NCBI GenBank assembly: GCA_947479755.1
Contig: CANKAM010000003.1
Coordinates: 1-32,000, forward strand
Direction of reading: 5' to 3'
Length of the DNA stretch: 32,000 bases
DNA from: Bacteroidota bacterium
GTDB lineage: Bacteria; Bacteroidota; Bacteroidia; SXHM01
Part shown: in pieces, positions 157 to 23,928 of the stretch
Numbering within the stretch: position 1 is the stretch's first letter
Layout of the letters: each line of letters opens with the position of its first letter
Translations under genes and position numbers: made by a program
The notes under the pieces: model-generated
The model's input: the letters and a program-made list of their open reading frames with translations, nothing else
The model's database searches: none
Told to the model about the DNA's origin: nothing

Positions 157-1599
157 TTATTTTTTTCTGCTGGGCAGACCTAATTTCCATCTGATCATAT
201 CAGCTATTATAGGATAGATATCATTGTGCTTTGCTCCAAATCTGAATGTTTTTGCATTGGGATCAAATGCACCTAAATCTCTATTTTTTCCTTCATCATC
301 AGTTGGTAAATATTCTTTCAATTCAACAAGTCCTTCATTGATTTTTTCCTCATCAGTAAACGTGTAAAATCGCCACATTGCATTTGTATGGGAAAAATCT
401 ACGTTAAGAATATCCTCTGTTAATTTTCTTTGATTTTCTTTTGTTTTTAGCTCTTCATTCCTGCCAAAGAAAAAATCAAAATACAACTTAGCAATAGCCT
501 TCAATAAAACTGGTTGAGCAGCGACAGTTGTAAGTTTTGAATTTTCACTAGTAATACCAGGTAGATTTAAAACTGTATCCCAATATTTCTCAGCTCCTGC
601 TACTCTACTGTCAATAATAGCAGGTAAGGCTCCGTTAATATTGGTTTTGTTTAAAAGTAGAATTGCATTTATTGCAACCAATTCTTTACGACTTAAGCCG
701 CCTTTACCCCAGTCTGATTGATCTTTTTCTTGTACATCAAAATTAGCAGAATCAAATTTATCATCAACTAATACATTTTTAATAAATTGATTAATAGGGT
801 TTGATGAATCAAATTGAAATGCTAATGATTTTTCAACTTTCTTAGTAAGATTATTTAAATCATGAAACAGCTGTTTTTCCTGATCAAGTTCTAAACCCAA
901 GTGAACATCGAGAGTAACAGTACAATATTTTAATGCTTCTAAACAATCAACCCAAACCGCTAATTCATCTGATGATAATTCTTCTTTATTTGTTGATGGA
1001 AATAAAGAAGCTTTTGAAGGATACTTATGAAATGTGGTTACATGTTTCAAAAAATCCAAAACTATTTCTGCTGCTTTTCTTCTATGTTGACCATCTACGA
1101 TCCATAAAGTATCTCCTTGATTTAAAAATATTTTATACGCTATGGTTTCAGAATCAATCGTTGTCAATGTGATAACTCTGAGATTTGTGCCATTGGGTTT
1201 GCAGTTTCTGAATGAAGCAACAATAGGGGCTATTGAAAAATATGGTTGGTTTCCTACAGTATTTATTATTTCATTTATTTTTTCATTTTCACTTGCTTCA
1301 ACTCCCTGGTTTAATCTTTTTCTACGTGCGGCACCTAGTAATCCCTTTAGAATATATTTAGCTAAGGAAGTTGCATGCGGTAGATTTAAACTTCTCTGAG
1401 AAACTCCACTTGAATTTTTTGATTGATCATTTGCTACTTCTGTAAATTGCATTAGGTCAAATAATGACATATGAATGGTAAATATTTTATTACCGCAATT
1501 TACACCAACGAATGTTTTAATTGGTTTTCCTGATGAGTTTTGATTTGATAACGCTTCTTCAAGAGTTACAAATTCACTTGAGATTGATTTTGTAGTCAT
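157..1599 (-). CDS. DGQHR-domain protein (DndB-like, ParB/Srx-type nuclease superfamily)
   Basis: ORF track 157..1653. Contains WIVDGQHRRKAAEIV (DGQHR signature) and, downstream, QLFHDLNN (DndB-type QxFxDxN). Start moved to Met19 (ATG at 1597-1599): the first 18 codons (MNYSYLLCSHINQLIINK) overlap a -7-like box (reverse complement TTACTTTG at 1631-1638) and look non-protein-like. AT-rich codon usage unlike the rest of the window. Confidence 0.8.
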   Translation of the reverse strand: MTTKSISSEFVTLEEALSNQNSSGKPIKTFVGVNCGNKIFTIHMSLFDLMQFTEVANDQSKNSSGVSQRSLNLPHATSLAKYILKGLLGAARRKRLNQGVEASENEKINEIINTVGNQPYFSIAPIVASFRNCKPNGTNLRVITLTTIDSETIAYKIFLNQGDTLWIVDGQHRRKAAEIVLDFLKHVTTFHKYPSKASLFPSTNKEELSSDELAVWVDCLEALKYCTVTLDVHLGLELDQEKQLFHDLNNLTKKVEKSLAFQFDSSNPINQFIKNVLVDDKFDSANFDVQEKDQSDWGKGGLSRKELVAINAILLLNKTNINGALPAIIDSRVAGAEKYWDTVLNLPGITSENSKLTTVAAQPVLLKAIAKLYFDFFFGRNEELKTKENQRKLTEDILNVDFSHTNAMWRFYTFTDEEKINEGLVELKEYLPTDDEGKNRDLGAFDPNAKTFRFGAKHNDIYPIIADMIRWKLGLPSRKK

Positions 1600-1770: not shown

Positions 1771-1897
1771 CTCCTCCAAGTAATCCATTTCCAAATCCAA
1801 CAAAAATTCAATATCCCTTTTCCTTCTTATTAAAAGCAATCCCCTTACCCCACCCTCCTCTGTAACCACCACCACCTAATTTTGAGTAAAGATTTCC

Positions 1898-2235
1898 CCG
1901 TTGTAACCGTTACAACGGCTTTTCCAAAATCGCTACCCCCTCCATAACGGTTATCAAATAGAATCCGCAATCCGACTCGATGCTATAACGGTTATGGCCA
2001 ATCCCAGATAATCCGACTCGCCTCCATAATGGTTATGGAGCAGAATCCGCAATCCGACTCGATGCCATAACGGTTATGGCCAATCACGGATAATCCGACT
2101 CGCCTCTAACAACGGTTATGGAGTAGAATCCGTAATCCGATTCGATGCCATAACGGTTATGGCCAATCACGGTCAATCCGATTCTCCTCCATAACGGTTA
2201 TGGAGGAGAATCCCAAATCCGACTCGCTTCCATAG
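1898..2235. repeat. Array of eight odd palindromes (core CCATAAC-G-GTTATGG) at 41-bp spacing; two alternating unit types give an 82-bp super-period
   Basis: Palindrome centres are at 1908, 1949, 1990, 2031, 2072, 2114, 2155 and 2196, giving spacings of 41, 41, 41, 41, 42, 41 and 41. Perfect arms: 10 bp at 1898-1918 (CCGTTGTAAC C GTTACAACGG), 8 bp at 2064-2080 and 2147-2163 (GCCATAAC G GTTATGGC), and 16 bp at 2180-2212 (GATTCTCCTCCATAAC G GTTATGGAGGAGAATC). Each unit also carries AATCCGACTCG (starts 1969, 2010, 2051, 2092, 2134, about 2175, and 2216). Confidence 0.9.
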
Positions 2236-2267: not shown

Positions 2268-2640
2268 GTTGCAGAAAAATATTTTTTGTGCTGAACAATA
2301 AATGAAATGTGGCTGCGTTAATATAAGTAGAGATGCTTCGACAAGCTCAGCATGACATCAACAAAAAAAATAATTTACATGCTACACAATAAATAAAAAT
2401 AACAGGCGTTACTAATAATAGATGCTTCGACAAGCTCAGCATGACAACAACCGAAAAAATAATTTACATGCTACACAATAATAAAATAAAAGCTGCGTTA
2501 ATAAGATATACAGGCATCAGATTACTGAACATAAAAAAAGGGAATAAAAAAATATTTTTTGCTCTACACAATAAATAAAAAACAACAGCGTTAATACTAT
2601 TAAAGATAAGGGCGACTGCCCTCACTAAAAGAAAACTAAA
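2268..2640. repeat. Four tandem ~90-bp AT-rich units (promoter-like A/T palindrome + CTACACAATAAATAAAA + GCGTTAATA + short hairpin)
   Basis: The ACAAT core starts at 2295, 2386, 2475 and 2568 (periods 91, 89, 93). GCGTTA is at 2315, 2406, 2495 and 2588. Units 1 and 2 end with the identical REP-like 27-mer AGATGCTTCGACAAGCTCAGCATGACA (2330-2356 and 2420-2446). Unit 4 ends with the hairpin AGGGC-GACT-GCCCT (2608-2622) and runs into the CA-rich leader of the 2680 ORF. Units 1 and 4 carry AAAAATATTTTTTG (one mismatch to TAnnTTTG). Confidence 0.8.
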
Positions 2641-2679: not shown

Positions 2680-3666
2680 ATGAGCACACCAGTTTTTTCT
2701 TTCACAGAAAACCCGTTTGATAACGGAACAAAAACCAGCAAAAAGAAAATGAACATTATAGCCGGAGACCATGTAAGTAAATTACATTCTCAAATGGCTA
2801 ACCCGCTTATCGCGGTGCTGTATGCCTTCTTCAATCCCATCCGGCAAAACTTCCTCAATAAATATTCGCAATGGATATCCGTGTCTGCTGCATATCATGG
2901 AGCCACGGTGGCTTTGGAGTTGCTGATGGCTCAGCTGAGGGGAGATAAGATAGAGGACTTTGATATACGTGTGCAGGTTGTTTATAAAAGAGGAACACCA
3001 CAATATGCTGCCTTGTTTCCTAACTTCCGTATTCCTTTTCAATCGGGCGGGTATGATGAAAGAATAGCCAAGCTCAAAGCGCTGGGCGAAGGGATGGATG
3101 TTGACCCTGCGTTTGCACTCATTAAAGCAGATGTGGATGCTTTTTACTTACTTATTTTTAATGCCCGTGATGCGCAGCAGGACCTGGAAGGATCAAAACA
3201 ATTTGTTTCAGATGAACTGGAGTTGCTGAGAATAGTTACTGCACAGGCGATGTATTATACACTGGGCGGATTGATGCAGGTGTTCAGCGTAAATACATTT
3301 CAGATTACCATGTTCTATGACCTTGAAACCCTGCGCGGACATATAACAGATACCATTGACCTGATCTTTGACGGTCCTGCAAATGGCAACACCATTGTAA
3401 ACGTGCTTGGCCCTGATGTATTACAATATCTTGCCGGTGTTACCCTGCGCATAAAAAACACAACAGCCGGTCCTGCTATTGGCGGCTTGTTTTTCTACGC
3501 TGCCGATAACGCTACTGACGGCTGGAACGGTCTTGGTCAGCAACTGAACCCCGGTGAGGAGGCTATCATCACACTCACTGCTGCACAATTCAGAGCATTC
3601 TTTAATGTGCAGAACCAGGGGCCAAATTTGCAGACTTACGAGGTGGAGATTATGTTGCCTGAGTAA
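2680..3666 (+). CDS. Hypothetical protein, 328 aa, no family recognised (helical N-terminal ~220 aa, beta-rich C-terminal ~100 aa; no signal peptide)
   Basis: ORF track. Long clean ORF with the base composition of the host part of the window. Preceded by the unstructured leader ACAAAACAAAAACAAACAAAACAATCAAA-ATG, typical of well-translated Bacteroidota genes. A terminator lies downstream at 3826-3872. Confidence 0.7.
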   Translation: MSTPVFSFTENPFDNGTKTSKKKMNIIAGDHVSKLHSQMANPLIAVLYAFFNPIRQNFLNKYSQWISVSAAYHGATVALELLMAQLRGDKIEDFDIRVQVVYKRGTPQYAALFPNFRIPFQSGGYDERIAKLKALGEGMDVDPAFALIKADVDAFYLLIFNARDAQQDLEGSKQFVSDELELLRIVTAQAMYYTLGGLMQVFSVNTFQITMFYDLETLRGHITDTIDLIFDGPANGNTIVNVLGPDVLQYLAGVTLRIKNTTAGPAIGGLFFYAADNATDGWNGLGQQLNPGEEAIITLTAAQFRAFFNVQNQGPNLQTYEVEIMLPE

Positions 3667-3668
3667 TA

Positions 3669-3730
3669 ACACTTCGACAGGCTCAGTGTGACTACGGTGT
3701 AGGGGTCATCCTGAGCTTGTCGAAGGAGTG
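3669..3730. repeat. REP-like inverted pair forming a long hairpin (CTTCGACAGGCTCAG ... CTGAGCTTGTCGAAG)
   Basis: 3672-3686 pairs with 3711-3725 over 15 bp with one G-T wobble. Same family as the single copies at 2330-2356 and 2420-2446. Confidence 0.75.
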
Positions 3731-3825: not shown

Positions 3826-3872
3826 AAAAGCCCCTTAGCTCTACAACGGTAGAGCGGGGGGTTTTCTTTTTT
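3826..3872. terminator. Bidirectional intrinsic terminator between convergent genes
   Basis: AAAAAGCCCC-TTA-GCTCTAC-AACG-GTAGAGC-G-GGGGG followed by TTTTCTTTTTT on the + strand. The complementary strand has the same stem followed by CTTTTTG. Confidence 0.6.
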
Positions 3873-3947
3873 CGTCATTGCGAGGGTTTTTCACCCGAAG
3901 CAATCTGTTTCAAATTGTGAGATTGCTTCGCTTCGCTCGCAATGACG
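3873..3947. repeat. REP-like long hairpin (CGTCATTGCGAG ... CTCGCAATGACG family)
   Basis: 3873-3884 pairs with 3936-3947. An inner stem CGAAGCAATCT / AGATTGCTTCG is also present. It abuts the stop codon of the cyclase gene and is followed by TTTTT on the + strand. Confidence 0.7.
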
Positions 3948-23376: not shown

Positions 23377-23790
23377 ATGAAACAAAAGAATCTGACATTC
23401 CCTTCCACTGCCGACAGCCTGCACCTTGTTGAAGCTCTTATTGACGAGATAAGCGCTGACATGCACCTTGACGAAGATTATTACGGGAATATTCTGATTG
23501 CGGTAACTGAAGCAGTAAACAACGCTATTAATCACGGAAATAAACAAGACCCCAACAAAACAGTGTCGTTTGTATTTACTGAAAATGACGATCATTCTAT
23601 TTCCTTTAAAATAGCCGACCAAGGCACGGGCTTTGACTTTGAAAACATACCCGACCCCACTTCACCCGAAAATATTGAAAAAGTAAACGGACGCGGTGTG
23701 TTTCTTATGAAACAACTATCTGACGGAGTTACCTTTGATGATAACGGACGAGTGGTTGAACTTTCGTTTAAGTTGGCGCAGCACGCATAA
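23377..23790 (+). CDS. Anti-sigma-factor-type serine kinase (RsbW/SpoIIAB-like HATPase_c)
   Basis: 137 aa. N-box EAVNNAINHGN, G1 box DQGTGFD, and NGRGVFLM. Lies 16 nt after the upstream gene, so is probably co-transcribed. Confidence 0.8.
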   Translation: MKQKNLTFPSTADSLHLVEALIDEISADMHLDEDYYGNILIAVTEAVNNAINHGNKQDPNKTVSFVFTENDDHSISFKIADQGTGFDFENIPDPTSPENIEKVNGRGVFLMKQLSDGVTFDDNGRVVELSFKLAQHA

Positions 23791-23810
23791 GAATTTTATA
23801 TTCCAAAAAC

Positions 23811-23849
23811 AAAGAAGCCCGTTCAAAAATGAACGGGCTTCTTTGTTTT
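23811..23849 (+). terminator. Intrinsic terminator
   Basis: AAAGAAGCCCGTTCA aaaa TGAACGGGCTTCTTT: a perfect 15-bp stem followed by GTTTT. Confidence 0.85.
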
Positions 23850-23928
23850 AGCCCATTAAAATTCGTTTAAAATTAGGTTTCGGCAAATATTAATTTATAC
23901 ATTCGCTTCATTAACAAATCATTATTTA

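Follow-up and report, generated by a model that had tools for sequence, protein, structure and literature searches.

A 41-bp-spaced palindrome array upstream of an unannotated gene family of Bacteroidota

Tandem arrays of short inverted repeats are part of several described bacterial systems. The bacterial interspersed mosaic elements (BIMEs) of E. coli, which are clusters of repetitive extragenic palindromic (REP) sequences, consist of tandem, short and imperfect palindromes that alternate in flavour and orientation and keep their symmetry by compensatory change. The sopC centromere of the F plasmid, the iterons of lambda-type origins and type II parC sites are composed of tandem inverted-repeat units that span a near-integral number of helical turns. 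In type III toxin-antitoxin systems (ToxI/ToxN, CptIN, TenpIN), tandem units of about 40 nt lie upstream of one gene and are inherited with it; their period is kept, their sequence co-diversifies with a fast-evolving protein, and they are located near defence-type variable genes. The regions upstream of the rrn promoters P1 and P2, with their UP element and phased Fis sites, combine tandem promoters, A/T tracts and degenerate phased dyads. Here we describe a palindrome array that resembles each of these systems and fits none of them, nor CRISPR arrays, invertons or an entry of Rfam. It was found in a stretch of 32,000 nucleotides from a Bacteroidota bacterium (positions 1 to 32,000 of contig CANKAM010000003.1, assembly GCA_947479755.1), which is referred to as the window. 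The array sits in a gap of 1,081 bp between two divergent genes. It is a genuine element linked to one gene family, which is represented in the window by the open reading frame (ORF) at 2680–3666 (plus strand); its architecture is conserved and its sequence evolves fast.

Unlike BIMEs, the array occurs at one locus per stretch, always upstream of one gene family and with a strict period of 41 bp, and the same genome contains separate hairpins that are genuinely REP-like. The period of sopC is 43 bp compared to 41 bp here, and both arrays comprise several to a dozen copies in non-coding DNA next to the gene that is served. In contrast to sopC, iterons and parC, the array is not accompanied by a partition or replication gene, is located on a chromosome, shows conserved synteny on one side only, and has palindromes that turn over between close relatives; moreover, the linked gene product is acidic and lacks a DNA-binding fold. 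The locus differs from type III toxin-antitoxin loci in its protein, which has 328 residues, is acidic, and combines a helical bundle with a jelly-roll instead of being an endoribonuclease of the ToxN/AbiQ type. Furthermore, promoter-like units intervene between array and gene, there is no conserved strand polarity, and PADLOC gave no match. Compared to the rrn upstream regions, the array has far more sites, which are nearly identical and follow a strict period, and the adjoining promoters are putative. To our knowledge, Bacteroidota lack Fis. CRISPR was rejected because the segments between the palindromes are themselves repeated (AATCCGACTCG, 7 units) and no Cas domain was found among the ORFs of the window. 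An inverton was rejected because five assemblies spanning the array share one arrangement (the majority form) and the window contains no recombinase.

Geometry of the array and linkage to one gene family

A palindrome scan located eight dyads with centres at 1908, 1949, 1990, 2031, 2072, 2114, 2155 and 2196. Their spacings of 41, 41, 41, 41, 42, 41 and 41 bp reproduce exactly those of an original prediction, which had been made from the letters of the window. The centre at 2114 belongs to a degenerate unit with a 1-nt insertion. Tandem Repeats Finder reported a single array at 1939–2234 with a period of 82 bp (3.6 copies, 86 % match, score 436), which can equally be read as a period of 41 bp with 7.2 copies. 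The array body (1939–2235, no strand), which has seven units, one of them 42 bp long and the others 41 bp, is built from two alternating flavours, CTCCATAAC-G-GTTATGGAG and GCCATAAC-G-GTTATGGC, and the predicted super-period of 82 bp is confirmed. The direct motif AATCCGACTCG starts 12 nt past each unit of the body and occurs in register seven times (5 exact copies, 1 with one mismatch, 1 with two). The longest perfect palindrome of the array, with the 16-bp arms noted before, is located at 2180–2212 (no strand) in the unit closest to the gene. A weaker, secondary palindrome Q (CGGAT-A-ATCCG; 2087–2097, centre 2092, no strand) lies at half-period, 20 bp from the main dyads on either side. In most lineages, the linkers contain its half-site AATCC/GGATT too, in one orientation or the other. 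The gap was correctly described as free of ORFs, as none of at least 40 aa lies between 1971 and 2440.

The first unit differs from the others. Unit 0 (1898–1918, centre 1908, no strand) is a perfect palindrome with 10-bp arms, CCGTTGTAAC-C-GTTACAACGG, which can also be written GTTGTAAC-C-GTTACAAC, and it does not contain the AATCCGACTCG motif. The statements that one palindrome sequence is common to all eight units and that each unit carries the direct motif consequently hold for seven units and have to be corrected for unit 0. Among the related loci introduced below, the unit 0 palindrome is the same in L032 and near-identical in L041 and L014; its type, TGTAAC-N-GTTACA, makes up the entire array of L041. 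Apparently, unit 0 retains the ancestral palindrome type.

Allowing up to 3 mismatches, CCATAACGGTTATGG has 16 matches in the window, 13 of them inside the array and 3 elsewhere (each with 3 mismatches); good matches within the window are restricted to the array. Shuffled versions of the window gave an expectation of 0.67 matches and 0 of 100 reached 16, which corresponds to an approximately 24-fold over-representation. The array has a constant length and an identity of 99.6–100 % in five independent spanning assemblies of the species, and partial contigs of the species match it at 99.9–100 %. Neither copy-number differences nor inversion variants were found in the five spanning assemblies, which show the majority form only. 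Short-read contigs of this species (L022–L025, L028, L030) terminate within the array or within the 90-bp units that follow it, and many members of the gene family elsewhere are known only from contigs of 1–2 kb. These contig ends suggest that repeat-rich flanks are common around the family, and the array explains the tendency of contigs with these genes to break.

Homologues of the 328-residue protein were found in metagenome-assembled genomes (MAGs) of Bacteroidia and in metagenomes, and their genomic contexts were retrieved. Eight loci of clade 1 offer at least 500 bp of upstream DNA, namely the window, L031, L032, L034, L035, L038, L039 and L041. In all eight, the gene is flanked on the same side by a palindrome array whose period is 41 bp, and this retention spans protein identities down to 42–45 %. 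A ninth array, L014, stems from a MAG labelled Chitinophaga; its contig ends inside the array, and the gene is not in view. The arrays comprise 6–13 units per lineage. Over the nine arrays, 62 steps measure 41 bp and 5 measure 42 bp, and other values do not occur. The palindromes themselves differ: CCGTAAC-G-GTTACGG in L031, TGTGGC-G-GCCACA in L032, TGTGG-CGA-CCACA in L039, TGTAAC-N-GTTACA in L041, GTTGGGG-AAA-CCCCAAC in L034, ATTGGCA-AAA-TGCCAAT in L038, and GTAG-CCA-CTAC in L035. No array is present at the clade-2 paralogues L036 and L043, with which only the C-terminal domain is common, the N-terminal half being different. The array travels with the right-hand gene 2680–3666, and the DndB-like gene to its left (157–1599) does not. 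A contig of 1.8 kb from a sibling sample, L040, has the protein and the proximal promoter-like units of L039; further upstream it diverges (1–256 compared to 2060–2639 of L039), and the 41-bp array was not seen. As evidence for an allele that cleanly lacks the array, L040 was rejected, since a short contig of chimeric origin, wrongly assembled at the repeats, would look no different.

The unit is not dispersed. Scans covered the 32-kb window, about 93 kb of flanks at 8 loci, and sequence collections; the complete genome of the window was not included. No good copy of the unit was found outside the array in the window, and no lineage palindrome occurs outside its own array in the flanks. A single-unit pattern of 18 bases matched 15 loci in 185,579 species genomes, 14 as single matches and one as a homologous array (L014), where we estimate about 17 matches by chance. 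A degenerate pattern yielded 1 single match in 241 million metagenome records and none in viral contigs. Dispersal, which would characterize the REP/BIME cluster initially considered, was thus not observed in any of these scans. The palindromes by themselves do resemble those of REP clusters: the dyads measure 13–33 bp, flavours alternate, and in L041 both centres and linkers alternate in orientation. A REP-associated tyrosine transposase (RAYT) is absent in 8 of the 9 loci; a weak Y1_Tnp neighbour exists at L031 only and none in the window. With regard to the GTAG/CGTC tag, reading the units revealed no consistent GTAG head. In the literature, no description of a 41-bp palindromic array in Bacteroidota was found.

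The companion gene has no family annotation. Its 328-residue product gave no match in Pfam, NCBIfam, PHROG or PADLOC, and no sequence relative in the PDB. An AlphaFold2 model with a predicted local distance difference test score of 89 consists of two helical hairpins of about 60 residues and a C-terminal jelly-roll with eight strands. Foldseek found weak cupin/PirA-type matches to the jelly-roll and no confident structural relative. In an exhaustive profile search, the family was found to comprise 1,511 clusters (50 % identity), of which 429 have E-values of at most 1e-30. Ten family members that were checked have no confident Pfam domain, and ten source names all read "hypothetical protein"; likewise, the profile search listed no named or cultured carrier, only such entries from MAGs and metagenomes. 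The MAG of L032 holds a second paralogue. Collections of phages, plasmids and viral contigs contain no member of the family, and a phage or plasmid origin of the module was rejected for lack of homologues in these records. The array is a cis-element tied to one large, wholly unannotated protein family of environmental Bacteroidota.

Compensatory turnover of the palindromes

The TPR-adenylate cyclase that is the convergent neighbour of the gene is 93 % identical between the window and L032 and 81 % identical between the window and L039. The corresponding values of the 328-residue protein are 63 % and 56 %. A sliding comparison of the nucleotide sequences of the window and L032 gave a background identity of about 87 %. 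The leader and unit 0 are 97 % identical and the conserved promoter and 5' untranslated region (5'UTR) blocks 87–93 %, compared to 23–53 % for the array body, 48–63 % for the centre of the ORF, and 67–87 % for its 3' end. Close relatives thus have two hypervariable islands that are separate from each other, the array body and the ORF centre. The variable centre of the ORF extends over 2745–3400 and corresponds to the helical part of the protein, the ends being better conserved. Across lineages, the domain-wise identities of the protein form a mosaic. This pattern points to recombination or to diversifying selection, comparable to flagellin-like proteins with a variable centre. The palindrome type follows the variable region of the protein no more closely than expected from plain co-inheritance, which counted against the protein as a binding partner of the array.

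When the palindromes were aligned in register, changes on both sides were found in all seven stem pairs (87 cells). The covariation score is 0.632, compared to 0.308 for shuffles (0 of 500 reached the observed value); slid controls did not exceed 0.22. The differences among the four related palindrome types are exclusively mirrored transitions, and the types can be arranged in a series. One branch leads from TTGTAAC (unit 0, L041) via CCGTAAC (L031, L014) to CCATAAC (window), and a separate one from TTGTAAC to TTGTGGC (L032, L039). In L014, two palindrome variants stand side by side, and each is symmetric by itself. Replacement of the palindromes is seen even where the neighbouring cyclase is 93 % identical, and period and dyad symmetry are kept. 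The spacing of 41 bp and the dyad symmetry are tightly constrained, whereas the time over which close relatives diverged has sufficed for the sequence to be replaced.

Possible functions of the array

Between array and ORF, the window contains four promoter-like tandem units of about 90 bp each (2275–2607, plus strand), which are unique to this gap in the window. Each unit is made up of an A/T tract (AAAAATATTTTTT), CACAATAAATAAA, about 8 nt, GCGTTAATA and a variable hairpin. The underlying motif, preceded by the A/T tract, is CACAATAA followed after about 13 nt by GCGTTA; its copies start at 2294, 2385, 2474 and 2567. There are four to five copies in the window, L032, L039 and L041, one in L031, and one in the array-less clade-2 locus L043; the unit was also seen in L040. 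In total, the units are recognisable at 5 of the 8 clade-1 loci, with the array upstream of them. The first CACAAT…GCGTTA unit starts 39–59 bp after the end of the array in the window, L031, L032 and L041. At L035, the array abuts the final approximately 55 bp ahead of the ATG. The last motif copy precedes the ATG by 113 nt in the window, by 103–113 nt in relatives including L043, and by 74 nt in L031. Being located upstream of the promoter-like units and the gene, the array occupies the classical place of upstream regulatory sites.

We favour, with somewhat less than even confidence, the interpretation that the array is a helically phased dyad array acting at the DNA level as the distal upstream control region of gene 2680–3666. 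Here, the array would act as double-stranded DNA. Its 6–13 dyad sites of 13–19 bp stand at a distance of exactly 41 bp, which is about four helical turns, with a weaker dyad at half-period, about two turns away; all sites consequently lie on one face of the helix. The end of the array is about 40–60 bp ahead of the first of the 1–5 promoter-like units, after which an A-rich 5'UTR and the ORF follow. A dimeric or structure-sensing DNA-binding factor, encoded elsewhere, might load cooperatively on the phased sites and modulate the adjacent promoters. Gene conversion from unit to unit and from arm to arm would homogenise the units, and the palindromes could therefore drift fast with dyad symmetry and phase being retained. 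The array would thus presumably function as DNA and not as RNA, and a protein would bind it. If a protein does bind it, the array is unusual in length and regularity among chromosomal promoters and implies a novel regulator. From the original prediction, this interpretation retains the locus-specific array of dyads in helical phase; it does not retain the DGQHR partner, the centromere or the BIME.

Several observations weigh against such a control region. The only conserved neighbour has an isoelectric point of about 4.9, each of its segments is net negative, and a nucleic-acid-binding fold was not found. Being acidic throughout, the 328-residue protein is unlikely to bind the array. As an array-binding partner it was rejected on these grounds, and also because it has no family match and only weak matches to its jelly-roll. 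The units of about 90 bp are putative promoters, as judged from position and conservation. They do not match the canonical Bacteroidota consensus TTTG/TAnnTTTG, and because they deviate from the sigma-A consensus they may depend on an alternative sigma factor. If the transcription factor were fixed, the half-sites could not turn over from TTGTAAC to CCGTAAC, CCATAAC and TTGTGGC, as they do between relatives whose neighbouring cyclases are 81–93 % identical. A DNA-level function must therefore assume a read-out of shape or dyad symmetry, or a co-evolving factor. Furthermore, changes in the arms that are all transitions are also expected of RNA stems that evolve via G·U intermediates, and arms of 5–9 bp, as found in most units, are typical for RNA hairpins. 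Finally, the window, L014, L032 and L041 share a match to the −7 box (T[A/T/G]ATTTTG, 7–8 of 8 positions) at a constant distance of 13 nt upstream of unit 0.

These last points would be explained by a transcribed array of hairpins, which we regard as possible but doubtful. A promoter in the leader would initiate an RNA at about 1890, whose 5' end would be the 10-bp stem of unit 0, followed by 7–13 hairpins every 41 nt. The transcript could be a non-coding RNA in its own right, or the beginning of a structured leader of great length. What matters would be the stems alone, be it for stability, for pausing or for a structure-specific protein, so that their sequence would be free to covary. The leader block (1859–1897, plus strand) is C-rich and constitutes a decayed array unit −1 with the half-palindrome CTCTGTAAC (centre about 1867, i.e. 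1908 minus 41). The block shares 97 % identity with L032; in L041 and L014 it is conserved as well. Within it lies the candidate Bacteroidota −7 box TAATTTTG (1877–1884, plus strand), which is perfect in the window only and matches in 7 of 8 positions in relatives; an accompanying −33 element is not present. The strong compensatory covariation, the restriction to transitions in the arms of the four related palindrome types, and the sizes of stems and loops agree with RNA hairpins, as do short T-runs past the last unit in L031, L034 and L039.

However, the strand-specific evidence does not point to an RNA. The stems contain 421 Watson-Crick pairs; the non-Watson-Crick positions are 15 G·U, 21 A·C and 28 other combinations. 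G·U is thus not in excess over A·C, and an attempt to assign the RNA strand in this way was given up as there is no asymmetry. The composition of the strand and the orientation of the linkers flip among lineages. For example, the GC skew of the arrays ranges from −0.20 to +0.24 and changes its sign, and the ratio of AATCC to GGATT on the sense strand of the gene is 12:0 in the window, 1:7 in L039 and 2:6 in L034; in L041, the palindrome centres alternate between TGG and CCA. The loops do not share a conserved sequence. Compared to shuffles, folding is far better for both strands, in agreement with hairpins, but as the strands fold equally well (z-scores of −5.8 and −6.0) folding does not discriminate, and the predicted single-strand fold is characterized by long-range pairing between units and not by discrete hairpins. 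No box comparable to that upstream of unit 0 precedes the arrays of L031, L034, L035 and L039. Canonical Bacteroidota promoters were found on the minus strand only, where they belong to the left-hand genes; the gene strand has none besides the lone −7 box at 1877, and in most lineages no canonical promoter on the gene strand lies upstream of the array. A sigma-70/terminator scan gave no useful information. Region 1600–2680 has no Rfam match with an E-value of at most 1, and there is no tRNA match. Moreover, the exact period of 41 nt has no obvious rationale at the RNA level unless processing or binding of the units proceeds in constant steps. An expressed array, if true, would establish a new class of tandem-hairpin RNAs. 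Either way, the upstream signature and the tandem promoter-like units offer a way into a family whose more than 1,500 clusters have no assigned function.

It is unlikely that the array is a self-perpetuating palindromic minisatellite without a function at the sequence level, maintained by unequal crossing-over and conversion between arms. Such a minisatellite would persist as harmless DNA or merely as a fragile or recombinogenic spot, which would also account for the variable island on its left. The fast turnover of the array body compared to its surroundings, the decayed units at the edge, and the flips of centre and linker orientation, which are expected from recombination between inverted arms, are compatible with this explanation. 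The same holds for the left flank, which is different in each lineage and often carries defence- or mobile-type genes, and for L040, whose protein is identical to that of L039 and which may represent an allele without the array. Contrary to what would be expected, however, the array is kept at the same place in every clade-1 locus even at the lowest protein identities, its copy number is confined to 6–13, its 41-bp period recurs in every lineage, and the spanning assemblies of one species do not vary in length. Bacterial genomes normally delete useless DNA of 300–500 bp.

We consider it quite improbable that the array and the hypervariable acidic protein are two halves of one co-diversifying system. 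In this case, the array could for example be expressed as 41-nt hairpin units, as RNA or as single-stranded DNA, which partner or control the protein. This would constitute a new module of nucleic acid and protein, common to at least one clade of the unannotated family. A role in defence or conflict would be conceivable, given that the locus borders a variable island rich in defence-type genes. The protein itself was rejected as a ToxN-like RNase, given the lack of a match in Pfam, PADLOC and PHROG, its model of helical bundle plus jelly-roll, and its isoelectric point.

A sopC- or iteron-like centromere bound by the adjacent DGQHR protein, or a BIME-type REP cluster, is highly improbable: with their inverted repeats, the tandem units of about four turns do resemble sopC in architecture, and alternating unit flavours and orientations as well as the weak Y1-transposase match beside the L031 array recall BIMEs, but a DGQHR/DndB gene adjoins none of the 8 other arrays, DGQHR homologues on one phage and two plasmids lack such an array, the context is chromosomal with no par or rep gene in a Pfam scan of the larger ORFs of the window (19 scanned; housekeeping, efflux and signalling genes), the unit does not recur elsewhere in the window, in the flanks of about 93 kb or in the scanned collections, and the genome has its own, different REP-like hairpins. 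The co-occurrence with DGQHR genes fails in both directions. Short palindromic tandem arrays beside ParB-like genes need a co-occurrence test before they are called centromeres.

Neighbouring genes and further repeats

The left-hand gene (157–1599, minus strand) had been recognized as DGQHR-like, which was borne out by matches to Pfam DndB (2e-31) and TIGR03187 DGQHR (2e-11, below its cut-off); its match to PHROG 36010 is very strong (E-value 9e-131). As the left neighbour, it is specific to this species; it lies outside the element and stands alone, with no dndCDE nearby. Homologues with 43–47 % identity exist in Pseudomonas phages of about 98 kb (the inspected record, COT4, belongs to Otagovirus). 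Such homologues are also encoded on small plasmids, among them pHAE2 of 5.8 kb. A co-directional ORF of 199 aa follows the gene in the species of the window (L017). Immediately upstream of its start, 22-bp direct repeats AATCCTGGATGTAAATAT (2.3 copies, 1652–1700) are found, with two further CCTGG(G/A)… half-copies near 1731 and 1752. These repeats fall in a segment that is not syntenic with relatives. They are a candidate operator of the DndB gene and a more natural one than the 41-bp array.

Left synteny with the closest relative stops about 150 bp before the array; the DndB gene is therefore part of a variable island, and the array marks its edge. Synteny on the right side is kept. The left neighbours differ by lineage and comprise DndB, a collagen-like protein, a Y1 transposase, a 588-aa protein plus HepT/MNT, a cargo protein of the type IX secretion system, and NERD-UvrD. 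In L017, L031, L032, L039 and L041, the left flanks (left of about 1750) often contain defence-, toxin-antitoxin- or mobile-type genes. In addition, a ParE toxin is encoded downstream of the family gene in L041. Otherwise, the window has the content of an ordinary Bacteroidota chromosome, with GH125, RND efflux, hemA and TPR-adenylate cyclase genes. The analysis placed the window at the end of contig CANIVR010000003.1 of MAG GCA_947471425.1.

The 5'UTR of the 328-residue ORF contains a hairpin, GGGC-GACT-GCCC (2610–2621, plus strand), for which L039 has the compensatory variant AGGC-GAAT-GCCT. A putative intrinsic terminator with a G+C-rich stem and a subsequent T-run (3831–3873, plus strand) appears to close a monocistronic unit. 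REP-like hairpins CTTCGACAAGCTCAGCATGAC are located at 2336–2356 and 2425–2445 (both plus strand), 3672–3692 (plus strand) and 3705–3725 (minus strand). The first two are inserted in promoter-like units, and the other two form an inverted pair directly after the ORF stop. Their stems covary (e.g. CCCT…AGGG), and a further REP-like entry is found at 1399–1411 of L014. After the terminator, a second type of hairpin, GTCATTGCGAG…CTCGCAATGAC, occupies 3874–3946. At 23788–23880, sub-threshold Rfam matches to "Thr_leader" on both strands correspond to a bidirectional intrinsic terminator after the HATPase_c_2 gene, GCCCGTTCA…TGAACGGGC, which is flanked by A- and T-runs.

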